Shown here piece by piece: positions 22,374 through 35,006 of a stretch of 64,000 nucleotides of DNA. Source of the DNA: Myxococcota bacterium. Lineage in GTDB: Bacteria > Myxococcota_A > UBA9160 > UBA6930. The stretch is taken from positions 1,056,001 to 1,120,000 of the forward strand of contig OZ245002.1 of NCBI GenBank assembly GCA_965223415.1, written 5' to 3'. The notes under the pieces are model-generated. The model did not search any database, was not told where the DNA came from, and saw only the letters and a program-made list of their open reading frames with translations. The translations under genes and the position numbers were made by a program. Every line of letters starts with the position of its first letter. Position 1 is the first letter of the stretch.

Positions 22374-22570
22374 GGCGCCGATTCGAACCGAGGAGACCAC
22401 TGCACGCTCACTTCGATGCGGGGCGACGTGGTGCCTGTCGAGGGACGTCATCTCTTGCGCGCTAAGAGGACGGCTAGTTTTGCGCACCCCCCTGGGTTGA
22501 TGTTCGGTTCTTCCTTCTTCTCTTCCGCTCTCCGAAGGAGAGCACGGCCGTCAGGCCGCCCTCTGGGGCC

Positions 22571-23371
22571 TCAACGCTGGGCGCTTTGCCCCGCGGCCTG
22601 CTCGAGCTCGCGGAGCCGGTAGCTCCGCCCCGAGATGTTGAGCACCTGGCTGTGGTGGAGGAGGCGATCGAGGATGGCGGTGGCCAGCACCTCGTCGCCC
22701 GCCAGCACCTCGGGCCAGTCGGCGATGCCCTTGTTCGTGGTGATCAGGATCGAGCCCCTCCCATAGCGGTAGGAGACGAGCCGGAAGAAGAGGCTCGCCT
22801 CCTGGCGCGTCATGGGCTCGAAGCCGACCTCGTCGATGACGAGGAGCGCCACGTTCATGTGCTTGCGCCGCCGCAGCCGTTGCGGGCTGATCTCGGCGTC
22901 GCGCTTGAGGGCCGCCAGCAGGTCCTCGAGGCGATGGAAGGCCACGGAGAAGCCGTTCTCCACGGCCCGCACCCCCAGGGCCACCGCCAGGTGGGTCTTG
23001 CCCACTCCCGGCGGACCCTGGATCAGCAGACTCTCCTTGGCCCGGATCCACGCGCAGGTGCCCAGCGTCTCGATCCGGCTCCGCTCCACACTCGGCTGGA
23101 AGGCGAAGTCGAAGTTGCCGAGGGTCTGCCCCGTGGGAAGGCCCGAGAGACGGAGCGAGGTCTTCATCCTCCGCTCCTCGCGGTGCTGCAGCTCGGCCTC
23201 GAGCAGCAGGTCGAGGAAGCGGTGGGGCACGAGGTCGTCCTTGGTCGCTCGGGCCAGCTCCTCGCCGATGTGCTCGGCCGCGTGATGGAGGCCGAGGCGC
23301 ACGAGCCGCTCGCGGGTCGGGTCGAGATCCACCTTGCCGCCCTTCTTGGGCACCGGGTTTCCCGCCGTCAT
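22571..23371 (-). CDS. istB: IS21 helper ATPase IstB
   Basis: Motifs GPPGVGKT, LLVIDEVG and AILDRLLHH. Confidence 0.93.
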   Translation of the reverse strand: MTAGNPVPKKGGKVDLDPTRERLVRLGLHHAAEHIGEELARATKDDLVPHRFLDLLLEAELQHREERRMKTSLRLSGLPTGQTLGNFDFAFQPSVERSRIETLGTCAWIRAKESLLIQGPPGVGKTHLAVALGVRAVENGFSVAFHRLEDLLAALKRDAEISPQRLRRRKHMNVALLVIDEVGFEPMTRQEASLFFRLVSYRYGRGSILITTNKGIADWPEVLAGDEVLATAILDRLLHHSQVLNISGRSYRLRELEQAAGQSAQR

Positions 23372-24654
23372 CGCGCCACCTCCGCCAGATCGGCATAGAG
23401 GTCGATCGGCCGCTGCTCCGGCTCCATCGCCCACAGCTCCTGGAGGCGTCGACCCATGCGCCCGAGCGGTACGGGCGCCTCCACCCCCTCCGTGCTCGGC
23501 CCCTCGTAGTGGCTCGGGTCCAGCAGCAGGCGGCTTCGCGTGTGGCGCGGGTGCGCGGCCACCACCGAGCCCTCGGCCCAGACCTGCACCTGCCGGGCGC
23601 AGCCGCGCACCTCGACGCTCTGCTCGACGAAGCGGAAGGGGACGCTGTAGGTACGCCCCTCGAAGCGCACCGTGGCGTCGCGCCCGACACGTCGCATCAC
23701 GGCCAGGTCGAAGGGCTCGGGAAGCCGCTCGGGCAGGGCCCCGAGATGGGGCTTCTCCGCCTCCCACGCCTGGAAGACCGTCGTGCCCGTCGCCGGGCAC
23801 TGCCGCCGGTGGCTCGAGCGCGCCACCTGGCCGTCCGTCCACGCTTGCAGCGACTCCAGGCTCTCGTGCTCCCGCCGACGCGGATCGAAGCCCCGCCGGT
23901 GCCCCAGGATCCGACGCTCCACCTTCCCCTTCTCCTGCGGCTGGCGGGGACGGGTGGCGTCCACGTGGAAGCGAAGGGCCCCGGCATAGCTCGCGTAAGC
24001 CGGGTTCACCGTCCCCCATGGCCCCGCCCCCTTCGCCACCGCTGTCTTCACGTTGTCGACCCGCAGCACCGCCGGCACCCCGCCCAGCCGCTCGAAGGCC
24101 CGGTTGTGCACGTCCAGCCACGCCAGCGTGTCCGCCCGCTCCGACCACACCACCGCTTCTCGCCGCGAGTGCGAGAGCACCAGGTGGAAGGCATGCAGGT
24201 CCACCTCCTGGCCCCCGATCCGCACGCCCGGAAACTCGCCCCAGTCCACCTGACCCTGCGCCCCGGGCGGTGTCTCCACCCGACGCCGGCTCCGCACCTT
24301 CGGTCTCGGGAACCGGGCCCGCACGTACCGCTGCACGCTCTTGGAGCTCCCCGTGTACCCGTGCTCCTCCACCAGGAACTCGTGAAGCTCCTGCAGGTTC
24401 ACGCCACGGCCTCCCGAGCTCGCCTCCAGCCACTCCGCGATCACCTCGTGGACCGCCTCGGCCAGGAAGGGCTTCCCGCTCCGGCCGTCTCGCGCCCCCT
24501 CCGCCAGCCGCTTCAGCCGGTAGCGCACCGCGCTCTCCCGGATCCCCAGCTGGCGGGCGATCTCCCGGTTCGAGCACCCCCGCTCGTGCAGCACTTCGAT
24601 CGTCATCACTTCCTCCTGCCTCAGTCGCCGCTGCCCCACGCCCCCCTCCCTCAC
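23368..24654 (-). CDS. istA: IS21 transposase IstA
   Basis: Motifs QGQVDWG, RVDNVKT and EKGKVER. Confidence 0.93.
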   Translation of the reverse strand: MREGGVGQRRLRQEEVMTIEVLHERGCSNREIARQLGIRESAVRYRLKRLAEGARDGRSGKPFLAEAVHEVIAEWLEASSGGRGVNLQELHEFLVEEHGYTGSSKSVQRYVRARFPRPKVRSRRRVETPPGAQGQVDWGEFPGVRIGGQEVDLHAFHLVLSHSRREAVVWSERADTLAWLDVHNRAFERLGGVPAVLRVDNVKTAVAKGAGPWGTVNPAYASYAGALRFHVDATRPRQPQEKGKVERRILGHRRGFDPRRREHESLESLQAWTDGQVARSSHRRQCPATGTTVFQAWEAEKPHLGALPERLPEPFDLAVMRRVGRDATVRFEGRTYSVPFRFVEQSVEVRGCARQVQVWAEGSVVAAHPRHTRSRLLLDPSHYEGPSTEGVEAPVPLGRMGRRLQELWAMEPEQRPIDLYADLAEVAR

Positions 24655-24737
24655 GGGGAACGTGCCGCGCAGCGGCTCAACAGGAGGTGCGCAAATCTAC
24701 GTGTCCTCTTAGCCCTCGAATATCACGTCCTGCGACA

Positions 24738-24843
24738 AAAGATGAGCGACGGTCCCATACTCGAGCGAGATGTAGAGCACACCCTCGTCGAGAGACTGCG
24801 GGATCTCGGTCACGAACGCATGCGAGATCTGCTCTACTCGCAC
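24738..24843 (-). pseudogene. DUF6527-like protein, 5' half (interrupted by IS21)
   Basis: GTG 24843 gives MRVEQISHAFVTEIPQSLDEGVLYISLEYGTVAHL, then the IS end. The start overlaps the ThiF gene end. Confidence 0.82.
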
Positions 24844-26015
24844 TCCTCGTCCTCGCTGACCAGGAGATTCACGTCGAGCGTATACGTCGTCGAGTGTTCG
24901 CGTTCCAGGTCTCGGTAGAACCCGAGGAGCTTCTTCCAGCGAATCACCGCCATCGCTGCGTTCAGGGCGTTCAGCTCGGCGATCTGGATGTTGCTTCGGT
25001 AGGCGTCATCCTCGACTGCAGCATCCAACGAGACCCGCTTTCGGAAGTGCTCTCGTTTTGCTGGCGTGCTCGTCGTCGTGCGGACGACACCTCCCAGCTG
25101 GCCTTCATCGAGCTCGAGGCCAATGCCGACGTCGACGAAGGCGATTTCCTGGTCCTCGAGGTAGGCCACGATCGGTGCCTTTGCAGCGCCATCGTCGATA
25201 CAGAGGAAGACGAAGTCCACACCTGCCAGCTCACCCACGTTCGACTGATCGAGCGCGATCTCGTGGGGCACTATGCGACGGTGCATGCTCGAGTAGAGGC
25301 GGTGATGGTGCGTCACCTTGGCCGGGCCCTCCCGCAGGGTCTCTAGCGATGGAGCACCTGGCGCTCGGAATGCGTTGTGGGTGAAAAAGCGGTCGGGATC
25401 GAAAATGTGAATCTCCCTAACCGGGGTCTTCGCCGCGAAGTCGAGTACGTACGCCCCGCTCCCGCCGACGCCGACGATGGCGATCCGCTGCCGCTCCAGC
25501 TTGCTCGTCACCTCGACGATCCCAGCCCGGGCGGACGCCGTTTCGGGGTAGCGAAACGGCGACTCCGCGGGGGCCTCGCTCGGACGGAACGTCTTGGGTG
25601 TGGCCGTTCGGTCGAGTGAGGCGGCCGGGCCCGAGAGGATGGTTGCATAGGTATCGAACTTCGCGAAGTAGTCCGGGTACCCGCCCGGAGGCTTGTTGGA
25701 GAAAGAGTGTCTCGCAACCAAGTCGTCGGCGATCGTCGTGCTTGCCCGACCGTGCTCGATCCCGGTGATCGGCTTGCCGGAGGCATGACACGGATGATGC
25801 TCTCCCGTGAACATCATCACGTGCGTGCTCGGTCTACCTGTTCGATCTCCGCTAAGTGTGAGCTCTGAGACGAGGGCGCCGCGTGCGACTGTCCGGTCCC
25901 GGGTCACGTACGGCACGTTGTCGACAACGATGTGGCCCGATCGGATCGAGACCTCATAGCCCTCGTCAACGAGGCGCTGCAGATCAGGGCTAAGACTTAT
26001 CAGTGCGTGTGACAT
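24834..26015 (-). CDS. ThiF/E1-like adenylyltransferase with N-terminal E2-like (DUF6791-like) domain
   Basis: Motifs IAIVGVGGSG, IFDPD, HNAFR and FLCID; the N-terminal domain carries a GEHHPC cysteine. Confidence 0.85.
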   Translation of the reverse strand: MSHALISLSPDLQRLVDEGYEVSIRSGHIVVDNVPYVTRDRTVARGALVSELTLSGDRTGRPSTHVMMFTGEHHPCHASGKPITGIEHGRASTTIADDLVARHSFSNKPPGGYPDYFAKFDTYATILSGPAASLDRTATPKTFRPSEAPAESPFRYPETASARAGIVEVTSKLERQRIAIVGVGGSGAYVLDFAAKTPVREIHIFDPDRFFTHNAFRAPGAPSLETLREGPAKVTHHHRLYSSMHRRIVPHEIALDQSNVGELAGVDFVFLCIDDGAAKAPIVAYLEDQEIAFVDVGIGLELDEGQLGGVVRTTTSTPAKREHFRKRVSLDAAVEDDAYRSNIQIAELNALNAAMAVIRWKKLLGFYRDLEREHSTTYTLDVNLLVSEDEECE

Positions 26016-26253
26016 TGAAGATCATTCCGTCCTTGACCTTCACAGCCTCGCCCTCCACGAGCGTCCCTTCGCGCTTGCCACCCGGGCCGCGCTTGAAGGT
26101 GACGGTGAAGCAGATGAAGCCGCCCTGGGTCTGCCCCGGGAAGGCGATGTCGACGACCTCGGCGAACGTCAGCTCCTCCTTCTTGGGCAGCTGGTGACGC
26201 CGTCCGTTGACGATGATGGTCACGGTCTTCTCGCAGTCGCTGTGCTTGTTCAT
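25990..26253 (-). CDS. Multiubiquitin-domain (beta-grasp) ubiquitin-like protein
   Basis: TIIVNGR..ELTFAEVVDIAF..TVTFKRG..GTLVEGEAVKVKDGMIFNVTRTDKS; RBS AAGGAG before ATG 26253. Confidence 0.82.
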   Translation of the reverse strand: MNKHSDCEKTVTIIVNGRRHQLPKKEELTFAEVVDIAFPGQTQGGFICFTVTFKRGPGGKREGTLVEGEAVKVKDGMIFNVTRTDKS

Positions 26254-26297
26254 TTCCGGCTCTCCTTTATGATCCTGCGCTCCATGAGCGCGTGCAT

Positions 26298-26325
26298 GCG
26301 TGTCAGCGTGCATGCGGACACTTTA
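26298..26325 (-). promoter_or_regulatory. Candidate operator and -10 box upstream of the Ubl operon
   Basis: Imperfect palindrome TGTCAGCGTGCATGCGGACA (26301-26320) next to a minus-strand TAAAGT; 13/15 identical to 27458-27472. Confidence 0.45.
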
Positions 26326-26346
26326 GCGAAGAAAGGACGCGGCCGC

Positions 26347-27075
26347 CTAGAGACGAGCCTGCCCCCGGGGGGAGGCGCATGCCAGGCCCTGGAGTCGGAT
26401 GCTTGCGGCCTGCTTTGACACTGTGAAGCGCCGCGCGACCTCTTCGACCAGCTTCTTGAGCCCCTCCGAATCCGGCTCGAGGGGCAGGGACAAGGTGAGC
26501 CGCTCGGACTCTTGCTCGACCACGGTCAGCATTGTGGGCTTCGGCATCAGCAAGGAGCCGATCGCCTTGTTCGCCTGGACCTCCCGCCAGTCGCTGCCGC
26601 CGCTGTAGCCGACGTCGCGCTTCAGGCACCGCATCAGCTGGGGTGTGTTCGGGCGGTGCCCCGTCTCCGAGCTGTTGAACAAGCCGCGCTGCATCTCATC
26701 GAGCTCGTAGAGAATGCGGTGCAGCAGCGCGTGGCCGATCTCGTGTGCCACGGTCGCGCGCCACCGTCCTTTCGTTCCGCCGGTAGCGTCGTCGGCATCG
26801 AAGGCCCCCGTAAGATCGCGGTTGATCTCGATGCGCGGCGGCTTGCCAGAGCAGAAGTGGGTCACGCCGAGCACGTCGGGATCGAGATCCGCGTGCTGGT
26901 CAAAGGGGAAGCGCAGATGGCGTTCGATCAGCCGCTCCAGATCGACCGTCACGTCGTTGGAGTTGGGGTCCGGCATGAGGCTCGCCTTGTCGAGCTCATC
27001 GACCATGATCTGGTCGATCTCGGAGGGCTCGTACCAGAGCTTCCGCTCCCTGCCGGGGGCTCTGTACTCTCTCAT
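26347..27075 (-). CDS. ImmA/IrrE-like Zn metallopeptidase (CapP-like)
   Basis: RWRATVAHEIGH (HExxH) and WREVQAN...LLMP; overlaps the HTH gene (ATGA). Confidence 0.85.
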   Translation of the reverse strand: MREYRAPGRERKLWYEPSEIDQIMVDELDKASLMPDPNSNDVTVDLERLIERHLRFPFDQHADLDPDVLGVTHFCSGKPPRIEINRDLTGAFDADDATGGTKGRWRATVAHEIGHALLHRILYELDEMQRGLFNSSETGHRPNTPQLMRCLKRDVGYSGGSDWREVQANKAIGSLLMPKPTMLTVVEQESERLTLSLPLEPDSEGLKKLVEEVARRFTVSKQAASIRLQGLACASPRGQARL

Positions 27076-27440
27076 TTCGACTTCTTCTCTCTATCCCTCG
27101 CGAGCTGTTCGACTTTCTTCTCGAGCTTTCCGAGCTCTTCTGGTGACAACTTGCTCTCGGAGACCTTGCGAAACAGAGTTACGGCCTGCGGGACGTTTTC
27201 CACGTACTTCTCGGTTACCTCGTAGACCTTGCCTGCTTGCACCATTAGATCATCGAAATCGAGGCGTAGGTGCTTCGCCAAGGAGCGGAGCAACTCCTCA
27301 GATGGCACGCGGCGATCGTTTTCGATGTCACTTAGGTGTGTCGGAGAGATGCTGAGCAACTTGGCCAGCTCCCGTAGACCGTAGTCGGTCGTCTCGACGC
27401 GCGCGGTGTGTAGGCGAGCGCCTAAACTTGCTTTCGGCAC
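27072..27440 (-). CDS. XRE/Cro-CI HTH regulator (CapH/ImmR-like)
   Basis: LRELAKLLSISPTHLSDIENDRRVPS. Confidence 0.9.
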   Translation of the reverse strand: MPKASLGARLHTARVETTDYGLRELAKLLSISPTHLSDIENDRRVPSEELLRSLAKHLRLDFDDLMVQAGKVYEVTEKYVENVPQAVTLFRKVSESKLSPEELGKLEKKVEQLARDREKKSK

Positions 27441-27605
27441 TGGGACCTCTTTCGTTCGCTTGTCAGCGTACAGGTGCTCGCTCAGGGTTGCAACGAACGG
27501 GCCTGGGGGCCCCAGTTCGGCTGGGCAATCTCAGCCGCAACTTCGGCGAGGCCGCCGCGACCACTGGTCTCCCCTGGGGGAATCGAGTGAGTTACGTATC
27601 CTTAC

Positions 27606-28274
27606 GTGGCTTTGGCCTACACCAAGCGAATAGTCTGTTTGGCGAAATCGAAGAAGCTGGGCGCCACTTGCGTCGCGGGGCTTGAGTGGAACGGAACTGC
27701 TCGAGGCGAGTGGATCCGGCCGGTGGGAGACCGGCCTTCCGAGGCGATCGTGGACGAGGAGATGGACTTCGAGGGTGGCGGGCAGGCTTCGCTCCTCGAC
27801 GTCGTCGAGATCGACTTCCTTGAACATCGGCCGCACGCTTGCCAGACCGAGAATCACCTGATCACCGACGATCATTGGTGGAGAAAGGTGGGTGAGCTGA
27901 GCCCGCGGAAGCTACGGCGACTCGCCGACCAGCCGCCAGACCTCTGGGGAACGGACAACCACGGCTATATCCGGGATCGAATTCCAATCGCGGAAGCAGA
28001 CGCTCTACCGTCATCGCTGCTGCTTGTTCGGCTCGAGTCGCCAAGCGTCGAGGTGCGACGATGGCCTGAGCGGACCACTGTGCGCGTGGACTTCGACTAC
28101 AACGGCGTTCACTACAATATGGCGGTGACGGATCGGGCCTTCAAGAAGCGTTTCGTAGCAAAGGGTGCCGGTGACTACCCCCTCGCGACCGAGACGTATG
28201 CCTGTCTCTCATTGGGTGAACCGAACGACGGGTACCGCTTCAAGCTGGCGGCCGCCGTTTTCGAGTTGGACTAA
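27606..28274 (+). CDS. Dual OB-fold domain protein
   Basis: KRIVCLAKSKK...CVAG, WIRPV, HACQTEN and CLSLGEP match the dual-OB family pattern seen next to DUF488/DarTG genes. Confidence 0.7.
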   Translation: MALAYTKRIVCLAKSKKLGATCVAGLEWNGTARGEWIRPVGDRPSEAIVDEEMDFEGGGQASLLDVVEIDFLEHRPHACQTENHLITDDHWWRKVGELSPRKLRRLADQPPDLWGTDNHGYIRDRIPIAEADALPSSLLLVRLESPSVEVRRWPERTTVRVDFDYNGVHYNMAVTDRAFKKRFVAKGAGDYPLATETYACLSLGEPNDGYRFKLAAAVFELD

Positions 28275-28279
28275 CGGCG

Positions 28280-28906
28280 ATGCCGAGAGATTTGTTCACG
28301 ATTGGCCACTCCTCGCACCCGTTGCCCACCTTCCTAGGGCTTCTGAAGGAACATGGCATTGAGGTGGTGTGTGATGTGCGCTCAAGTCCCTACAGCGGCC
28401 GAAATCCCCAATTCAATCGCGATGCGCTCCAGAAGGACTTGGCAGCACGGTTCGTGAAGTACGTATTTCTTGGCAATGAACTCGGAGCTCGCAGCGAAGA
28501 CCCAAGCTGTTACGTCGATGGTCAGGCTCGCTACGAGCGAATCGCCAAGACGGCGATCTTCCAGTCGGGTCTCGAGAGAGTGCTCAAGGGTGTCGAGTCC
28601 TTCCGAGTCGCACTGATGTGCGCAGAGGCTGATCCGCTCACCTGTCACCGCACGATCTTGGTTTGCCGGGAGTTGAGAAACTCACGCCTCTCGATTGCGC
28701 ATGTTCTCTCCAATGGAAAGCTCGAATCCCACGCAGACGCTGAAGACCGGTTGCTCCGCATGACCAAGCTTGAAAACGGCGACTTGTTCCGCGGGCGTTC
28801 TGAGCTTCTCGACGAGGCCTACGGTGTTCAGGGGAGAAAGATTGCCTATAGGCGTCCTACGGACGGGACGAGAGCCTCTCACCCGCGCTCCGAGGTGCTC
28901 CGGTGA
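28280..28906 (+). CDS. DUF488 family protein
   Basis: Motifs FTIGHS, DVRSSPYS, ELGAR and LMCAE..CHR. Confidence 0.88.
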   Translation: MPRDLFTIGHSSHPLPTFLGLLKEHGIEVVCDVRSSPYSGRNPQFNRDALQKDLAARFVKYVFLGNELGARSEDPSCYVDGQARYERIAKTAIFQSGLERVLKGVESFRVALMCAEADPLTCHRTILVCRELRNSRLSIAHVLSNGKLESHADAEDRLLRMTKLENGDLFRGRSELLDEAYGVQGRKIAYRRPTDGTRASHPRSEVLR

Positions 28907-29343
28907 AGGTGTTCTCGATCGGGTTCACGAAGACGACGGCAGAGAGGTTCTTCGGGCGGCTCGCCGATGCGGGTGTTCGTAGAGTGATTGACGTCAGGCT
29001 CAACAACAGGTCCCAGCTCGCGGGCTTCGCGAAGCGAGACGACCTCAAGTTCTTTCTGATGGCCTTGGGCGACATCCAGTACGTCCACGAACCGATGCTC
29101 GCTCCTACGCAGGACATCCTGGACGCGCTCAAGAAGCACAAGGGTCAATGGGAAGACTATGAGCGGGCGTTTCTTGCGCTGATGCGTGAGCGGCGGATTG
29201 AAGAGAAGCTAGAAGCGAGTCTATTCGACCGCGCGTGCCTTCTTTGCAGCGAGGACCAGCCGCACCACTGCCATCGCCGGCTCGTTCTTGAATACCTTGC
29301 TGAGGCGTGGCCTGAAGCCGACCTGGAAGTGCTCCACCTCTAG
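28903..29343 (+). CDS. DUF488 family protein (second, shorter type)
   Basis: Motifs FSIGFT, DVRLNNRSQLAGFAK and LLCSE..CHRRL. Confidence 0.88.
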   Translation: MKVFSIGFTKTTAERFFGRLADAGVRRVIDVRLNNRSQLAGFAKRDDLKFFLMALGDIQYVHEPMLAPTQDILDALKKHKGQWEDYERAFLALMRERRIEEKLEASLFDRACLLCSEDQPHHCHRRLVLEYLAEAWPEADLEVLHL

Positions 29344-29425
29344 GTGCTCTTGTTCGGCACGCCGGCGCGGACCTTCTCTCCGTGCGCCAATCGGGACGCG
29401 GGTCTACCTCTGTTGGACGCATCAA

Positions 29426-29760
29426 GTGGGTGAGCCGAAGCTGCACCACTACGTGCCCCGCTTCTATCTTCGGCGGTTCGCTGATCCCTCGGGACGTCTG
29501 TGGCTATGGGACCGACATGAGGACCGCATCTTCGCCGCTAGTCCAAACAACGTCGCAGCAGAAAGGCACTTCTATCGTCTAACAGAATTGGTTCAGCAAG
29601 GTCTCGACCCGCTCACGATGGAGAAACAGTTCTCCGATCTCGAGGGCGAGGTTGCGCGAATCTCGAATCAGTGGTTGGACTGGCTGCGGCACATGGAGCC
29701 GAGAGAGAAGATCGAGATCCCCTCAGCGAATCGGGAAATCCTCTCGCTGTACATCGCCCT
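29426..29760 (+). pseudogene. DUF4238-like protein truncated by an IS
   Basis: HHYVPRFYLRRF..AERHFY..EKQFSDLE, ending at an IS21-type end. Confidence 0.75.
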
Positions 29761-30604
29761 CGGTGATCACCTCAAAGCCGGCCATATGTGAACGTCTCAA
29801 AGCCGGCCATAGGTGACTGCCCAGGAGGTGTTCTTCTACCGCGCCGCGGGCTCCTTCTGCAAGGCCGTTCCCTTTCGTGTGCGCCAGCTCCGGGGTCCGC
29901 ATTTGAGGATGTGTCCGTGGTGGAGGAGTCGATCGAGCATCGCGGTCACGGCCGCCGTGTCGCCGAGGAGGCGGCCCCAGTCGTCCACGGGCCGGTTCGA
30001 GGTGACGAGGGTGCTGGCGCGCTCGTAGCGGCGCATGATGAGCTCGAGGAGATCCTCGGCGGCCGTGGTGGGGAGCTTTCTCATGCCGAGGTCGTCGAGG
30101 AGGAGCAGCGGCACGCTGGCCATCTCGGTGAGGTAGCTCTTGCGCTCGCCGTCGAGCGTGGCATCGGCGAGCTCTTCGAGCAGCACGTGCACCTCGCGGT
30201 AGGCGGCGCGGTGGCCCTGGTGGATCGCAGCGAGGCCAATGGCCTGGGCCAGGTGGCTCTTGCCGCTGCCCGGCGGGCCAAGAAGGACCGCGTCCTCCGC
30301 GCGCGTGACGAAGCGTCCGGTGGCGAGCTCGAAGACGAGGGCGCGATCGATCTTCGGGTTGAAGGCGAAGTCGAAGCCGTCGAGGGTCTTGTGGGCATCG
30401 CGGAAGCGGGCCTGTTTGATGCGGCGCGCGAGCAGGCGATCCTGGCGCCGCTGGAGCTCGTCCTGGACCAGGGCGGAGAGGAGATCGATCGGGGGCCACT
30501 GGCTCTTCTGGGCCTCGAGCAGACGCATCTCCAGATGCTCGGCCATGCCCGAGAGGCGAAGCTTGCGGAGCGCCGGGTCGAGCTCGGTCATCTTCACGAG
30601 GGGT
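29760..30604 (-). mobile_element. Truncated third IS21-type element (one end plus istB only)
   Basis: The end carries tandem TCAAAGCCGGCCATA motifs; istA is missing where IS copy 2 begins. Confidence 0.8.
29836..30591 (-). CDS. istB: IS21 helper ATPase IstB (orphan)
   Basis: Motifs GPPGSGKS, LLLLDDLG and AMLDRLLHH. Confidence 0.88.
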   Translation of the reverse strand: MTELDPALRKLRLSGMAEHLEMRLLEAQKSQWPPIDLLSALVQDELQRRQDRLLARRIKQARFRDAHKTLDGFDFAFNPKIDRALVFELATGRFVTRAEDAVLLGPPGSGKSHLAQAIGLAAIHQGHRAAYREVHVLLEELADATLDGERKSYLTEMASVPLLLLDDLGMRKLPTTAAEDLLELIMRRYERASTLVTSNRPVDDWGRLLGDTAAVTAMLDRLLHHGHILKCGPRSWRTRKGTALQKEPAAR

Positions 30605-30687
30605 TGTCGCAGGACGTGATATTCGAGGGCTAAGAGGACACGTAGATTTGCGCACCTCCTGTTGAGCCGCTGCGCGGCACGTTCCCC

Positions 30688-31974
30688 GTGAGGGAGGGGG
30701 GCGTGGGGCAGCGGCGACTGAGGCAGGAGGAAGTGATGACGATCGAAGTGCTGCACGAGCGGGGGTGCTCGAACCGGGAGATCGCCCGCCAGCTGGGGAT
30801 CCGGGAGAGCGCGGTGCGCTACCGGCTGAAGCGGCTGGCGGAGGGGGCGCGAGACGGCCGGAGCGGGAAGCCCTTCCTGGCCGAGGCGGTCCACGAGGTG
30901 ATCGCGGAGTGGCTGGAGGCGAGCTCGGGAGGCCGTGGCGTGAACCTGCAGGAGCTTCACGAGTTCCTGGTGGAGGAGCACGGGTACACGGGGAGCTCCA
31001 AGAGCGTGCAGCGGTACGTGCGGGCCCGGTTCCCGAGACCGAAGGTGCGGAGCCGGCGTCGGGTGGAGACACCGCCCGGGGCGCAGGGTCAGGTGGACTG
31101 GGGCGAGTTTCCGGGCGTGCGGATCGGGGGCCAGGAGGTGGACCTGCATGCCTTCCACCTGGTGCTCTCGCACTCGCGGCGAGAAGCGGTGGTGTGGTCG
31201 GAGCGGGCGGACACGCTGGCGTGGCTGGACGTGCACAACCGGGCCTTCGAGCGGCTGGGCGGGGTGCCGGCGGTGCTGCGGGTCGACAACGTGAAGACAG
31301 CGGTGGCGAAGGGGGCGGGGCCATGGGGGACGGTGAACCCGGCTTACGCGAGCTATGCCGGGGCCCTTCGCTTCCACGTGGACGCCACCCGTCCCCGCCA
31401 GCCGCAGGAGAAGGGGAAGGTGGAGCGTCGGATCCTGGGGCACCGGCGGGGCTTCGATCCGCGTCGGCGGGAGCACGAGAGCCTGGAGTCGCTGCAAGCG
31501 TGGACGGACGGCCAGGTGGCGCGCTCGAGCCACCGGCGGCAGTGCCCGGCGACGGGCACGACGGTCTTCCAGGCGTGGGAGGCGGAGAAGCCCCATCTCG
31601 GGGCCCTGCCCGAGCGGCTTCCCGAGCCCTTCGACCTGGCCGTGATGCGACGTGTCGGGCGCGACGCCACGGTGCGCTTCGAGGGGCGTACCTACAGCGT
31701 CCCCTTCCGCTTCGTCGAGCAGAGCGTCGAGGTGCGCGGCTGCGCCCGGCAGGTGCAGGTCTGGGCCGAGGGCTCGGTGGTGGCCGCGCACCCGCGCCAC
31801 ACGCGAAGCCGCCTGCTGCTGGACCCGAGCCACTACGAGGGGCCGAGCACGGAGGGGGTGGAGGCGCCCGTACCGCTCGGGCGCATGGGTCGACGCCTCC
31901 AGGAGCTGTGGGCGATGGAGCCGGAGCAGCGGCCGATCGACCTCTATGCCGATCTGGCGGAGGTGGCGCGATGA
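30688..31974 (+). CDS. istA: IS21 transposase IstA
   Basis: Translation identical to 23368-24654. Confidence 0.93.
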   Translation: MREGGVGQRRLRQEEVMTIEVLHERGCSNREIARQLGIRESAVRYRLKRLAEGARDGRSGKPFLAEAVHEVIAEWLEASSGGRGVNLQELHEFLVEEHGYTGSSKSVQRYVRARFPRPKVRSRRRVETPPGAQGQVDWGEFPGVRIGGQEVDLHAFHLVLSHSRREAVVWSERADTLAWLDVHNRAFERLGGVPAVLRVDNVKTAVAKGAGPWGTVNPAYASYAGALRFHVDATRPRQPQEKGKVERRILGHRRGFDPRRREHESLESLQAWTDGQVARSSHRRQCPATGTTVFQAWEAEKPHLGALPERLPEPFDLAVMRRVGRDATVRFEGRTYSVPFRFVEQSVEVRGCARQVQVWAEGSVVAAHPRHTRSRLLLDPSHYEGPSTEGVEAPVPLGRMGRRLQELWAMEPEQRPIDLYADLAEVAR

Positions 31975-32771
31975 CGGCGGGAAACCCGGTGCCCAAGAAG
32001 GGCGGCAAGGTGGATCTCGACCCGACCCGCGAGCGGCTCGTGCGCCTCGGCCTCCATCACGCGGCCGAGCACATCGGCGAGGAGCTGGCCCGAGCGACCA
32101 AGGACGACCTCGTGCCCCACCGCTTCCTCGACCTGCTGCTCGAGGCCGAGCTGCAGCACCGCGAGGAGCGGAGGATGAAGACCTCGCTCCGTCTCTCGGG
32201 CCTTCCCACGGGGCAGACCCTCGGCAACTTCGACTTCGCCTTCCAGCCGAGTGTGGAGCGGAGCCGGATCGAGACGCTGGGCACCTGCGCGTGGATCCGG
32301 GCCAAGGAGAGTCTGCTGATCCAGGGTCCGCCGGGAGTGGGCAAGACCCACCTGGCGGTGGCCCTGGGGGTGCGGGCCGTGGAGAACGGCTTCTCCGTGG
32401 CCTTCCATCGCCTCGAGGACCTGCTGGCGGCCCTCAAGCGCGACGCCGAGATCAGCCCGCAACGGCTGCGGCGGCGCAAGCACATGAACGTGGCGCTCCT
32501 CGTCATCGACGAGGTCGGCTTCGAGCCCATGACGCGCCAGGAGGCGAGCCTCTTCTTCCGGCTCGTCTCCTACCGCTATGGGAGGGGCTCGATCCTGATC
32601 ACCACGAACAAGGGCATCGCCGACTGGCCCGAGGTGCTGGCGGGCGACGAGGTGCTGGCCACCGCCATCCTCGATCGCCTCCTCCACCACAGCCAGGTGC
32701 TCAACATCTCGGGGCGGAGCTACCGGCTCCGCGAGCTCGAGCAGGCCGCGGGGCAAAGCGCCCAGCGTTGA
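31971..32771 (+). CDS. istB: IS21 helper ATPase IstB
   Basis: Translation identical to 22571-23371. Confidence 0.93.
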   Translation: MTAGNPVPKKGGKVDLDPTRERLVRLGLHHAAEHIGEELARATKDDLVPHRFLDLLLEAELQHREERRMKTSLRLSGLPTGQTLGNFDFAFQPSVERSRIETLGTCAWIRAKESLLIQGPPGVGKTHLAVALGVRAVENGFSVAFHRLEDLLAALKRDAEISPQRLRRRKHMNVALLVIDEVGFEPMTRQEASLFFRLVSYRYGRGSILITTNKGIADWPEVLAGDEVLATAILDRLLHHSQVLNISGRSYRLRELEQAAGQSAQR

Positions 32772-32906
32772 GGCCCCAGAGGGCGGCCTGACGGCCGTGC
32801 TCTCCTTCGGAGAGCGGAAGAGAAGAAGGAAGAACCGAACATCAACCCAGGGGGGTGCGCAAAACTAGCCGTCCTCTTAGCGCGCAAGAGATGACGTCCC
32901 TCGACA

Positions 32907-33177
32907 TCTTTGTTGCTGCGGGTGCGGCAACGAGGTCACTACGCCCCTAACGCCAGTCGACTGGAGCTTGATCTACGACGGGGAGACCGTTTCCCTCGAT
33001 CCTTCGATCGGTAGCTGGGGGCTTGCGTGTCGATCTCACTACTGGATCACGCGGGGCCGCGTGCGATGGGCTCCCGCGTGGTCAGAGGAAGAGATCGCCG
33101 AGAATCGCGAACGAGACCGTGCTGAGAAGCGGCGGTTCTTCGGAGGTCGAGGCGGCTGGCTCAACCGAGACTCCTAG
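32907..33177 (+). pseudogene. DUF6527-like protein, 3' half
   Basis: LCCCGCGNEVTTPLTPVDWSLIYDGETVSLDPSIGSWGLACRSHYWI...; joins in frame to 24843-24738 after one TCTTT is removed. Confidence 0.85.
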
Positions 33178-33249: not shown

Positions 33250-34287
33250 CTAGCGGGCCTTCCCCAGAACGAAGTCCTGGAGCACGCGCCTCGATAGCTG
33301 ATCAGCCTTGGCTTTGGTTAGCCCGGAGGAGGAAAGAGCGGTCACGCGTCGAAGGGCCTTCTTTGAAGCCCCCTTTCGGACGTCTACGCTCCACTTCCCG
33401 TCAGGCTGCAGTGATCGTGTCACGCGGTAGACCTTCTTGTTCCACCCACAGGTCCACTCAGTACCGTTCTGACGTGTCGTCTCGGACCAGTTCTTCTCGA
33501 TCGCCACCTGCTCAAGCGCGTGACGCATCTGTTCAGCACTCTGGAAGCGCTTTTTCGGGTCGACGCCAATAGCCTTGTTGATGACCATACGGAGTGGCCG
33601 CGGAACGAAGTCCCGGTAGTAACTGCGATTCGGGAACTTCCCCTGAAGGGCGAGTGTCCGAGCCTGGAGCGGTGCGATTGCGGGAAGTAGCGAATCGCCG
33701 TTGACCAGGCGGTAGAGCGTAACTCCACACGCATAGATGTCGGTCAGTTCGTTGTAATCGTTCGGCCCTGCTACCTCCGGGGCAAGATGGAGCGTGTATG
33801 CATAGTCCTTTACACCGAGCGCCTTGAGGTTCAACCCGGTCGTGATCGCCAGGCCGAAGTCCGACAACTTGCCCTCGTTGGACTTACCCACGAGGATGTT
33901 GGCGGGCTTGATGTCACGATGAATGACACCCTTCGAGTGGGCGTACTCGAGGCCGCGAAGCACATCGATGATCATCCGCTTCGCCCTGGTCAGAGGGACG
34001 TACGAACCCTTCGCCTCGTCTTCCAGGCTCCCCTTGGGCAGGTACTCCATGGCCACGTACAGGCGACCATCACTCATCTTCCCGGTCTCGTGGACACGGA
34101 CGATATTCGGGTGCTCGACTGACTTCAGCAGTTGGGCTTCGTGGAAGAAGTTCTGAGGATTGAGCACCTTGTCCGGCGGAATGAGCTTGAGAGCGCGTTC
34201 AGCGTCTAGTCCGGTATCGGTGACCAACCAGACTTCGCCGAAGTTCCCGGAGCCCAGTCGCTGACGAAAGTCGAAGCCCGCCGCCAT
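33250..34287 (-). CDS. Hanks-type Ser/Thr protein kinase with small C-terminal domain
   Basis: Motifs LGSGNFG, ALK, HRDIKPAN, DFG and APE; no TM segment. Confidence 0.92.
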   Translation of the reverse strand: MAAGFDFRQRLGSGNFGEVWLVTDTGLDAERALKLIPPDKVLNPQNFFHEAQLLKSVEHPNIVRVHETGKMSDGRLYVAMEYLPKGSLEDEAKGSYVPLTRAKRMIIDVLRGLEYAHSKGVIHRDIKPANILVGKSNEGKLSDFGLAITTGLNLKALGVKDYAYTLHLAPEVAGPNDYNELTDIYACGVTLYRLVNGDSLLPAIAPLQARTLALQGKFPNRSYYRDFVPRPLRMVINKAIGVDPKKRFQSAEQMRHALEQVAIEKNWSETTRQNGTEWTCGWNKKVYRVTRSLQPDGKWSVDVRKGASKKALRRVTALSSSGLTKAKADQLSRRVLQDFVLGKAR

Positions 34288-34742
34288 CAGCCCAGTTCGC
34301 TCCACGCGGCCTGTAGCGCCTCCCGCTGCTTGTCGCTGAGGTCCGCGTACCCGGGGAAATGAGAGGTATCCAGTGTCGCCAGATAGCGGGCGCGGCCCTT
34401 CTTGCCCAAGTCCTTAGCGATTGTGCTCTTGACCTTCTTGAAAACGGCTGTCATGCCCTTCGACGCGGCAGCCAGCATCACGGCTGCTTCGTGCTCGACG
34501 CGGGTCTCGAACGTCGCGCCGCGAGTCCTACCTTCGAATCGCTTGATGACGACCTTGTCGATTGCGTGCTTCTCGAGCAGATCCGAGACTTCCTGATTCA
34601 GCCAGTGCAGGCTTTGCGCGGCCTTGAAGCCCTTGGGGAAGGGGAGGGTCTTGAGCTCCACCTGCTGGGGAGCGCCCTTCGTGCCATCGAGCACCGCGTA
34701 CGCGAAGTCCTTGTTGCTGCACCGAACGCCAAGAATGGGCAA
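34287..34742 (-). CDS. Hypothetical protein, possible RNase H-like (RuvC/YqgF-type) fold
   Basis: ILGVR..FAYAVL strand pair and DKVVIK; translationally coupled to the kinase (TGATG). Confidence 0.5.
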   Translation of the reverse strand: MPILGVRCSNKDFAYAVLDGTKGAPQQVELKTLPFPKGFKAAQSLHWLNQEVSDLLEKHAIDKVVIKRFEGRTRGATFETRVEHEAAVMLAAASKGMTAVFKKVKSTIAKDLGKKGRARYLATLDTSHFPGYADLSDKQREALQAAWSELG

Positions 34743-34929: not shown

Positions 34930-35006
34930 TGGCGCCCCGGGGAGGACTCGAACCCCCGACCCGCTGCTTAGAAGGCAGCCGCTCTATCCGACTGAGCTAC
35001 CGGGGC
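34930..35006 (-). tRNA. tRNA-Arg(TCT)
   Basis: GCCCCGG acceptor stem, anticodon arm GCTGC-CTTCTAA-GCAGC, GTTCGA T-loop and encoded CCA. Confidence 0.95.

Follow-up and report, generated by a model that had tools for sequence, protein, structure and literature searches.

On the minus strand of a 64-kb window (the whole stretch of DNA analysed here), an XRE-type repressor gene is followed by an HExxH peptidase gene and then by genes encoding a ubiquitin-like protein of 87 aa, an E2-E1 fusion protein and a member of the DUF6527 family. The locus raises the question of whether these genes form a complete, stress-inducible protein conjugation operon, as the original prediction held for five genes within positions 24738..27440, and to which known system they belong. 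The operon is a Type II Bub operon (formerly "6E.2/DUF6527"), BubA-BubBD-BubE, with a CapH/CapP-like regulator pair in front. Four of the five genes are whole. The fifth, bubE, is present between these positions only as a 35-codon stump that runs up against the terminus of an IS21-family element (Table 1). We conclude that the locus is very probably a damaged Type II Bub operon with a CapH/CapP-like switch, horizontally acquired and situated in a defence-gene island near tRNA-Arg. It adds no new kind of Bub system. Expression and activity of the operon are predictions from its sequence.

The operon block has a GC content of 0.59-0.64, compared with 0.70-0.73 in the adjoining IS copies and 0.65-0.73 in the flanks, in agreement with the less GC-rich island noticed earlier. 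The start of the capP-like gene overlaps the stop of the capH-like gene within ATGA. No sigma-70-like promoter was found between 24600 and 27800 (0.3 expected), a search that is uninformative for a high-GC host. A Hanks-type kinase gene (33250-34290) was considered as CapK, a Bub-associated regulator in which a GHKL kinase is combined with HTH and STAS domains. It was rejected; the product is a Pkinase protein, PD-T4-6/mad6-like, and the gene is convergent and not part of the operon.

Table 1. Positions of the operon genes, gene fragments, IS copies and candidate operators in the window.
Feature	Position	Strand	Details
capH-like XRE-family HTH repressor gene, 122 aa	27072..27440	-	GTG start after AAGAGG
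Short CapP-like ImmA/IrrE-family Zn metallopeptidase gene, 242 aa	26347..27075	-	H111-E112-x-x-H115
bubA, single beta-grasp ubiquitin-like protein, 87 aa	25990..26253	-	C-terminus ...NVTRTDKS
bubBD, E2-E1 fusion, 393 aa	24834..26015	-	DUF6791 E2-like (~1-160, S106) + ThiF (R217, Y339)
bubE 5' fragment, 35 codons	24739..24843	-	GTG start, 10-nt overlap with the end of bubBD; cut by IS
bubE 3' fragment, 88 codons + stop	32911..33177	+	CCCGC zinc-site Cys, conserved Ser / Cys-x-Ser-His
IS21-family copy A	22436..24737	-	istA 23368-24654, istB 22571-23371; ends TGTCG...CGACA
IS21-family copy B	30605..32906	+	inverted relative to copy A
Target-site duplication TCTTT, 5 bp	24738..24742; partner 32907-32911 (+)		first copy read on minus strand
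Candidate repressor operator ACGCTGACA	27461..27469	-	inside palindrome CGCT-GACA-AGCG, ~20 nt upstream of capH
Second copy of candidate operator 9-mer	26301-26309	-	between capP and bubA

The conjugating genes bubA and bubBD

Type II Bub operons are described as consisting of BubA, BubBD and BubE, usually without a JAB peptidase (Ye et al., bioRxiv 10.1101/2024.11.21.623953). The 87-aa protein matches Pfam Multi_ubiq (PF14452, 4.9e-16), as expected for the beta-grasp protein it had been taken for, and PDB entry 9cd2, the E. coli ZDHYS365 multi-ubiquitin protein, with E 1.9e-9. It aligns with 9cd2's third beta-grasp domain, and a C-terminal TDKS is common to both. The C-terminal Ser is invariant in the family. 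The ATG at 26253, giving the 87-aa form, has AAGGAG 8 nt upstream. The bubBD gene overlaps the 3' end of bubA by 26 nt, and a single 393-aa frame encodes both DUF6791 (6.8e-55) and ThiF (3.6e-10). A Pfam scan found no JAB/JAMM (Prok-JAB) domain in any of the operon proteins, and when the operon was scanned together with its neighbours against Pfam and PADLOC, neither a JAB peptidase nor a CD-NTase was found. With these matches, the earlier reading as a bacterial E1/E2/ubiquitin-like conjugation operon without JAB stands. The PADLOC 'E1-E2' profiles gave a weak match to the adenylation domain (best 1.3e-9), and BubA and BubE had no match in PADLOC v2. The source annotation of BubBD is 327 aa long and lacks 66 residues at the start of the E2-like domain.

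A search of the PDB with the BubBD sequence matched only the ThiF-like part of a tRNA-modification enzyme fusion and did not find a Bub E1. The model of the N-terminal, E2-like domain (pLDDT 85.5) gave no Foldseek match at E <= 0.001. In the VIA comparison its top match is Citrobacter BubB (9eae_C), with a Z of 9.1, barely above the tool's 'middling' range, an rmsd of 3.6 and 120 of 128 residues aligned. The remaining matches listed are all E2, UEV, UFC1 or Atg3 folds (Z 4.3-5.8).

The N-terminal domain does contain the Cys noted in the original prediction; it is C76, conserved in 21 of the 22 proteins aligned. A catalytic role for this Cys does not fit the published chemistry, which proceeds by Ser/Tyr oxyesters and not Cys thioesters, E. 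coli BubBD requiring R219, Y342 and S106 (Ye et al.). Here S106, R217 and Y339 are invariant in 22/22 aligned sequences. From this invariance and the numbering we infer that they correspond to the E. coli catalytic residues, E. coli BubBD itself lying outside the alignment. BubBD is predicted to conjugate BubA via oxyesters.

The DUF6527 gene, bubE, is next after bubBD in 80/80 related genome loci, and at 73 of these a bubA gene was also detected. Because the DUF6527 gene follows the fusion in every locus, the gene order is not due to chance, and the synteny expected of homologous operons is found. We did not find BubBD in any of the 40 relatives searched, which suggests that the operon is accessory. 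The nearest BubBD relatives are labelled Myxococcota, and the host genome is high-GC.

The split bubE gene and the IS21-family copies

The CCCGC and Cys-x-Ser-His part of the DUF6527 protein, placed by the original prediction together with the other four genes, is found beyond the second IS copy. The 5' fragment of bubE aligns to residues 2-36 of intact BubE and the 3' fragment starts exactly there. The latter matches Pfam DUF6527 (1e-22, profile positions 7-63 of 63), has no internal stop and keeps the covered conserved columns except the Asn of G-N-W, which is Ser here. Both pieces are without a stop or frameshift of their own. At the related loci, the stretch equivalent to the 5' fragment is joined to the rest of the gene in 79 of 80 cases (tblastn). 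We did not find a second DUF6527 (PF20137) gene in the 5.83-Mb genome, in which the fragment at 32911-33177 is the sole match. This fragment belongs to the operon 8 kb away.

IS21-family copies A and B form an inverted repeat, are 2302 bp long and are 100% identical; the element matches Pfam rve, Mu-transpos_C_2 and IstB_IS21. The genome contains 18 full copies, all 100% identical, indicating that the insertion is recent. A comparison of the flanks of the 18 copies showed that TCTTT is found on the istA side of copy A and again on the istB side of copy B. An IS21-family insertion interrupted bubE and, with the segment flanked by the two identical IS copies inverted, the halves of the gene lie at a distance from each other on opposite strands.

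Ordinary 5-6-bp duplications are present at nine of the 18 copies. The other nine are without a target duplication of their own, and their flanks pair mutually in a chain. No target duplication links the outer junctions of the two copies (22435/IS and IS/30604), and the flank of copy A on the lysR side has its partner at an IS copy 1.46 Mb distant. A single inversion is therefore insufficient to account for everything. It should also be said that misassembly across the identical 2.3-kb repeats could have produced the inversion, though not the insertion; bubE is interrupted with or without the inversion. The genome assembly is one contig of 5.83 Mb with 97% completeness. The island surrounding the operon is heavily IS-ridden, with an adjacent truncated DUF4238 gene and a second IS21-like istB that is itself cut. 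The original prediction was silent on the IS-broken operon, as it was on the GAF-less peptidase treated below.

These observations bear on other explanations of the locus. An intact, working five-gene stress-inducible defence operon would agree with four whole genes and with bubE pieces free of stops and frameshifts, but the 2302-bp IS after codon 35 of bubE, the remainder lying 8 kb off on the other strand and the lack of a second DUF6527 gene in the genome make it very improbable. Alternatively, the IS may simply have inserted in bubE, the inversion and the mismatched chain of IS flanks being assembly errors. The identity of the 18 copies, nine of them without their own duplication and with chained flanks, makes a misjoined repeat graph possible. 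Against this, a single 5.83-Mb contig, 97% complete, suggests reads that span 2.3 kb, and IS-mediated inversions are common in IS-rich genomes; we regard the explanation as unlikely. Quite unlikely is that the entire cluster is a functionless, decaying remnant with the IS insertion as the first step of its loss. Such decay would be in keeping with an IS-ridden island containing a truncated DUF4238 gene, a cut second istB and a broken bubE. However, capH, capP, bubA and bubBD are full-length frames with all family-invariant residues, the identical IS copies point to a recent insertion, and BubA and BubBD alone suffice for conjugation in vitro (Ye et al.).

The remaining alternative concerns function. 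The ThiF-family adenylation domain, together with the tRNA-modification enzyme fusion as top PDB sequence match of the E1 part, could suggest a sulfur-carrier pair of the ThiS/MoaD-ThiF/MoeB type, acting in cofactor synthesis instead of conjugation. This is exceedingly improbable given that the E1 shares its chain with an E2-fold domain that has BubB as its top match, that the DUF6527 gene is always next, and that BubA falls in Multi_ubiq and matches BubA of E. coli, a component of a pathway that conjugates protein in vitro. In addition, no thi/moa genes lie near the operon and the gene is absent from the 40 searched relatives.

The regulator pair and its candidate operator

The two genes in front of bubA encode the XRE HTH protein and HExxH peptidase of the original prediction, and their assignment to the CapH/CapP kind of pair is borne out by profile searches. 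The HTH protein matches Pfam HTH_31 (4.6e-11) and HTH_3 (1.2e-10) and PADLOC capH (1.9e-13, profile positions 2-101 of 103). The peptidase matches Pfam Peptidase_M78 (2.6e-6) and PADLOC capP (5.9e-10), the latter at profile positions 63-151 of 242 only, which is the catalytic core. E165 is invariant, and C150 is kept in 26 of 29 relatives.

A fold comparison was needed for the peptidase because a sequence search of the PDB found the solved CapP at E 0.34 only. The AF2 model (pLDDT 86.3) has no strand beyond residue 152 and contains only helices from there on (163-176, 179-192, 204-217 and 221-230). Its top structural match in Foldseek is Thauera CapP, 7t5t (E 4.8e-4; VIA Z 13.3, rmsd 3.7, 167 aligned), and IrrE/PprI are the next structural matches (VIA Z 11.1-11.4). 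According to the model, the C-terminal GAF domain of CapP is absent from the 242-aa peptidase, the 7t5t chain having 278 residues. In CapP and IrrE, ssDNA is sensed via the groove between peptidase and GAF. With no GAF domain, a core-only match to the capP profile and a sequence E of 0.34, ssDNA sensing may therefore not apply here. Cleavage of the repressor by the peptidase, ssDNA-stimulated or not, is predicted.

CapH and CapP occur in 168 of 544 catalogued Bub operons, or 31% (Ye et al.), and CapP genes mostly lie upstream of the operon and on the other strand (Lau et al., bioRxiv 10.1101/2022.04.27.489752). Here the regulator pair is co-oriented with the Bub operon. Among 71 related Bub loci, 25 have a capP-like gene at most 3.5 kb upstream, 22 of these being divergent and three co-oriented.

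The short peptidase was found once among 400 genomes of the phylum, and metagenome contigs were then searched. Sixty-eight metagenome loci extend 450 nt or more upstream of the peptidase gene, and in all 68 the gene directly upstream is a co-oriented relative of the repressor gene. The short pair in metagenomes is followed by SMODS and patatin, SMODS and TIR-SAVED, PLD-HerA and BrxA/B, a KAP NTPase, TIR, RmuC and Cas_GSU0053, DUF3892, DUF2188, and both Type I-like and Type II Bub, so that the cargo classes include CBASS, BREX-like, TIR and Type I-like Bub systems. There is evidence that the short GAF-less peptidase and its repressor form a modular switch that is found in front of defence operons of many kinds.

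A 9-mer inside a palindrome upstream of capH, with a second copy between capP and bubA, is a candidate operator of the repressor (Table 1). This motif, found post hoc, occurs twice in the window where 0.50 occurrences are expected, and two were reached in 7 of 100 shuffles. Palindromes resembling CGCT-N4-AGCG lie upstream of capH in loci L050 and L063, and a related word lies downstream of capP in L018, L050 and L063. We infer from this an operator function for the 9-mer. It is doubtful, taken as a whole, that the pair represents a distinct portable regulator class with two operators and a signal other than groove-bound ssDNA, and that the genome is in addition a natural bubE-null in which BubA conjugates would be irremovable.

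Proposed mechanism and comparison with known systems

We suggest a mechanism in which the steps up to the stripping of conjugates by BubE follow the characterised E. coli and Citrobacter systems, and the splitting of bubE is read from the sequence. The HTH repressor would bind palindromes lying upstream of both bubA and the repressor gene itself. Upon a stress signal the M78 peptidase would cleave the repressor and the operon would be expressed. The ThiF domain of BubBD would then adenylate the C-terminal Ser of BubA, and the BubA oxyester would pass from Tyr339 in the crossover loop to Ser106 in the E2-like domain and on to a lysine of the target protein. BubE, presumably a zinc-containing Ser-His peptidase, would normally strip BubA conjugates. 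With bubE split after codon 35 by the IS21-family insertion and its halves 8 kb apart on opposite strands, the deconjugase is lost, while bubA, bubBD and the switch look intact.

The original prediction considered a peptidase role for the DUF6527-like protein, which agrees with the description of BubE (DUF6527) as a Ser-His protease removing BubA conjugates (Ye et al.). Its view that this operon type is functionally uncharacterised is superseded, the biochemistry of Type II Bub being described in the same work. In the literature on Bub, phage protection has been demonstrated for no Bub operon, and for this reason the term 'defence' rests on context for this operon.

Bub pathways are mechanistically unusual in that they carry out ubiquitin-like conjugation without cysteine. 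The present genome is a natural deconjugase knockout with apparently intact conjugating genes. If true, such a natural bubE-null would be a handle for finding Bub targets and the role of the pathway. The locus also offers a single-domain BubA with the invariant C-terminal Ser of the family. For annotation, the lesson is that the bubBD call is too short and that the DUF6527 fragment at 32911-33177 is to be assigned to an operon 8 kb away.

The operon shares bacterial E1/E2-based conjugation with Bil (BilABCD) and with Cap2/Cap3 of Type II CBASS, but it has no JAB peptidase or CD-NTase, and its E2 is a DUF6791 domain with Ser, not Cys-based. With Type I Bub it has in common the DUF6527 deconjugase, the oxyester logic and an E2 fold nearest to Citrobacter BubB. 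Type I Bub has Ubl-E2 and JAB-E1 fusions, whereas here E2 is fused to E1 and there is no JAB; the Ubl C-terminus is Gly after processing in Type I Bub and Ser as translated here.

The regulator pair resembles CapH and CapP of E. coli MS115-1 and Thauera sp. K11, and DdrO and IrrE/PprI of Deinococcus, in that an HTH repressor is paired with a peptidase of the HExxH M78 kind. Like CapP, the peptidase has a conserved cysteine, C150, between HExxH and the Glu ligand, the site of the CapP cysteine switch, and like CapH and CapP the pair is found ahead of many kinds of defence operon. It differs from CapP in lacking the GAF domain (242 aa compared with the solved chain of 278 residues) and in being co-oriented, not divergent. 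By description it can be likened to ImmR/ImmA of ICEBs1 and prophages, also a repressor with an adjacent, short, GAF-less M78 peptidase; ImmA governs the excision of mobile elements, whereas the pair here precedes a conjugation operon.

The Type II Bub operon of E. coli ZDHYS365 agrees with this one in its three core genes and their order, in the lack of JAB, in a Multi_ubiq Ubl that ends in TDKS, and in the conserved Ser, Arg and Tyr. BubA has three beta-grasp domains in E. coli and one here, where bubE is split by an IS and the regulator peptidase is short, GAF-less and co-oriented with the operon.

Identity of the operon

The gene block starting at 27440 on the minus strand comprises five co-oriented genes, the fifth of which amounts to 35 codons only. 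In brief, these encode an XRE-type HTH protein, an HExxH peptidase whose ATG overlaps the stop of the HTH gene, the small Multi_ubiq protein BubA, the E2-E1 fusion BubBD and the beginning of the DUF6527 protein BubE. The GC content of the block, 0.59-0.64, is lower than in the neighbouring insertion sequences (0.70-0.73) and in the sequence beyond them (0.65-0.73). The most likely start of bubA, judged from an AAGGAG 8 nt upstream, would give a protein of 87 aa, in agreement with the original prediction. The BubBD product on record in the source collection (P0001) has 327 aa, 83% of our query. Its start is placed 66 residues late, so that part of the E2-like domain is missing; homologues align from residue 1.

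Features of the operon and its surroundings (window positions)
Feature	Position	Strand	Evidence or remark
Mu-transposase-like ORF, 600 aa	12532-14334	minus	Mu-transposase C-terminal domain 2.4e-16
IS21-family copy A, 2302 bp	22436-24737	inverted relative to copy B	istA and istB by Pfam
bubE 5' part, 35 codons	GTG 24843 onward	minus	downstream of bubBD; ends in insertion sequence
bubBD, 393 aa	24834-26015	minus	DUF6791 6.8e-55, then ThiF 3.6e-10
bubA	ATG 26253	minus	Multi_ubiq 4.9e-16
HExxH peptidase (capP-like)	26347-27075	minus	Peptidase_M78 2.6e-6
XRE-type HTH (capH-like)	27072-27440	minus	HTH_31 4.6e-11
DuOB (dual OB) protein and two DUF488 proteins	27606-29343	plus, divergent from capH	PADLOC candidate system PDC-M45 A/B/C 3.2e-65, 4.8e-80, 7.3e-69
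Lone istB from another IS21-like element	29836-30591	minus	
IS21-family copy B, 2302 bp	30605-32906	inverted relative to copy A	istA and istB by Pfam
bubE 3' part, cysteine-rich (CCCGCG..., ...C-R-S-H...)	32911-33177	plus	DUF6527 1e-22, profile positions 7-63 of 63
Hanks-type Ser/Thr kinase	33250-34290	minus, convergent with bubE 3' part	PD-T4-6 1.4e-57, mad6 2.8e-53
tRNA-Arg(TCT)	34930-35006	minus	beyond the kinase

Operons formerly called "6E" or "DUF6527" have been renamed Bub (Ye, Gong, Chambers, Corbett, bioRxiv 10.1101/2024.11.21.623953), and the window operon fits the Bub definition on each feature. The original prediction was largely right in its observations and right in outline in its interpretation, but the operon type, which it took to be functionally uncharacterised, has already been described and biochemically characterised, and the window copy is damaged. 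According to the preprint, E. coli BubA and BubBD are active in conjugation in vitro, a reaction that depends on R219 (adenylation), Y342 (crossover loop) and S106 (E2) and is taken as oxyester chemistry. BubE is described there as a weak Zn-dependent Ser-His protease that strips BubA conjugates in cells.

We found at least 3957 BubBD relatives at E <= 1e-10. In an alignment of 22 sequences S106, R217 and Y339 are invariant; the cysteine predicted for the N-terminal domain is present as C76, but is kept in 21 of the 22. An AlphaFold2 model of BubBD residues 1-160 (pLDDT 85.5) gave no Foldseek match at E <= 0.001. Its best VIA match is Citrobacter BubB (Z 9.1, rmsd 3.6 Å, 120/128 residues), and the remaining VIA matches listed are all E2, UEV, UFC1 or Atg3 folds (Z 4.3-5.8).

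In a tblastn search of the window proteins against 80 genome loci that contain a BubBD relative (L001-L080), the bubE 3' part came directly downstream of bubBD in every locus, 79 had the 5' part contiguous with it, and 73 had bubA. L001-L006 are not independent of each other, as their tblastn scores and coordinates are identical across the six for bubA, for bubBD and for bubE. These matching values suggest a recently shared mobile segment. The hosts of L001-L006 belong to different alphaproteobacterial genera (Xanthobacter, Bosea, Bradyrhizobium, MAGs). In most loci, as in the window, bubA ends 23 nt into bubBD.

BubA matches the solved E. coli ZDHYS365 BubA (PDB 9cd2; E 1.9e-9) over the latter's third beta-grasp domain, and both have the C-terminal TDKS. 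The 69 distinct Type II BubA sequences found beside bubBD in L001-L080 all end in serine (...NVT-x-T-[DV]-[KQ]-S), and the E. coli chain of known structure does so too. None has a C-terminal glycine, and no processing is needed. The preprint text mentions a C-terminal glycine for Type I Bub; the phrase "C-terminal serine" does not occur in its main text (Ye et al.).

The interrupted bubE gene and its surroundings

The 5' frame of bubE reads into an insertion-sequence end. The Zn protein predicted as fifth gene does exist as a DUF6527 sequence, but most of it lies outside the block, on the opposite strand. In an alignment with 21 intact BubE proteins the two fragments meet exactly, leaving neither gap nor overlap. 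They retain the near-invariant Cys, Ser and His columns, and one conserved Asn (G-N-W) is changed to Ser. A genome search found no further DUF6527 match in the source genome.

Between the two bubE pieces lie IS copies A and B, which are 100% identical, inverted and spaced 5.9 kb apart. The 5-bp word TCTTT is found both in the flank adjoining copy A's istA end and in the flank adjoining copy B's istB end. From this shared sequence, the abutting fragments and the inverted identical copies, we infer that bubE took one IS insertion, followed by inversion of the segment between two IS copies. A comparison of the flanks revealed no duplication common to the two outer junctions; on its other side, copy A has a flank that pairs with an IS copy 1.46 Mb away. 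The genome holds 18 full copies of the 2302-bp element, 100% identical, plus fragments. Nine of the 18 have ordinary 5-6-bp target duplications; the other nine lack one of their own, and their flanks pair among themselves as a chain. This pattern suggests either several IS-mediated rearrangements or assembly misjoins, and bubE is interrupted under either account.

The surroundings of the operon are a defence-type accessory island. A search of 40 relatives, 5 from the genus, 19 from the family and 16 from the order, found BubBD in none. The tRNA-Arg(TCT) is a possible attachment site of the island; a 151-aa ORF without family match separates it from the Hanks-type kinase. Beyond the DuOB and DUF488 genes, a DUF4238 gene (region 29288-30591) is shortened to profile positions 2-102 of 281. 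It is followed by the lone istB, the upstream part of whose element has given way to copy B, at a point 12 nt ahead of where istB starts. Judging by its domain match, the 600-aa ORF probably represents an istA belonging to a further IS21-like element.

Proposed mode of action and the upstream switch

Gene content, conserved residues, folds, synteny and the break were observed for the window operon; from the characterised systems, we propose the following mechanism. The HTH protein would repress the operon, and cleavage by the peptidase would relieve repression. The C-terminal Ser of BubA would be adenylated, BubA would be handed on to a target lysine via Tyr339 and Ser106, and BubE would remove it. 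Since bubE comes last in the operon and conjugation by the E. coli pair BubA and BubBD works without BubE, the remaining genes, if expressed, could still tag proteins, now without a deconjugase. According to a 2026 paper from the Corbett laboratory, no protection against phage has been demonstrated for Bub operons.

Two copies of the 9-mer ACGCTGACA are present in the window (0.50 expected; 7 of 100 shuffles reach two), just upstream of capH (27461-27469) and between capP and bubA (26301-26309). The upstream copy lies within the palindrome CGCT-GACA-AGCG, and similar palindromes precede capH in two Bub loci, L050 (ACGCTGATTAGCGA) and L063 (CGCTAATCAGCG), words of which reappear downstream of capP in L018, L050 and L063. 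The motif is a possible operator, a lead rather than a result since it was found by comparing the two regions.

PADLOC assigns the HTH protein to capH (1.9e-13) and the peptidase to capP (5.9e-10, covering only profile positions 63-151 of 242). Sequence similarity of the peptidase to solved CapP is negligible (E 0.34). A model built from 29 relatives (pLDDT 86.3) matches Thauera CapP best (Foldseek E 4.8e-4; VIA Z 13.3, 167 residues), followed by IrrE/PprI (Z 11.1-11.4).

Ye et al. report a CapH and CapP pair in 168 of 544 Bub operons. Of the related Bub loci, 71 had 1500 nt or more upstream, and we screened 43 HExxH-bearing ORFs of 120-450 aa in them; capP was the best PADLOC match in 25 of the 71 loci (22 divergent, 3 co-oriented), and ranked below another profile in 2 more. 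In 80 metagenome loci with the short peptidase (L084-L163), a co-oriented HTH gene lies directly upstream in all 68 with room. A BubBD-like match was found in 9 of the 38 with at least 2 kb downstream, 5 being Type II and 4 Type I-like (Prok-E2_E, JAB-ThiF, DUF6527). Other cargo behind the pair comprises CBASS-like operons (SMODS with patatin, SMODS with TIR-SAVED), PLD-HerA with BrxA/BrxB, KAP NTPase, TIR, RmuC with Cas_GSU0053, DUF3892 with DyP peroxidase, DUF2188 or unassigned genes. The pairing being constant and the cargo varied, the two genes act like a portable switch serving cargo of the defence type.

In the canonical arrangement capH and capP are encoded on the strand opposite to their operon (Lau et al., bioRxiv 10.1101/2022.04.27.489752), whereas the window pair is co-oriented with it. 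Past residue 152 the peptidase model has four helices only, and at 242 aa the protein is shorter than the solved CapP chain (278 residues); it is therefore predicted to consist of a peptidase domain and a helical linker domain, without a GAF domain. CapP and IrrE are described as binding ssDNA in a groove between peptidase and GAF domains, so that the trigger of the short peptidase may be a different one. The C150 of the short peptidase, kept in 26 of the 29 relatives, falls between HExxH and the invariant E165, on a predicted strand, a position that recalls the cysteine switch described for CapP by Lau et al.
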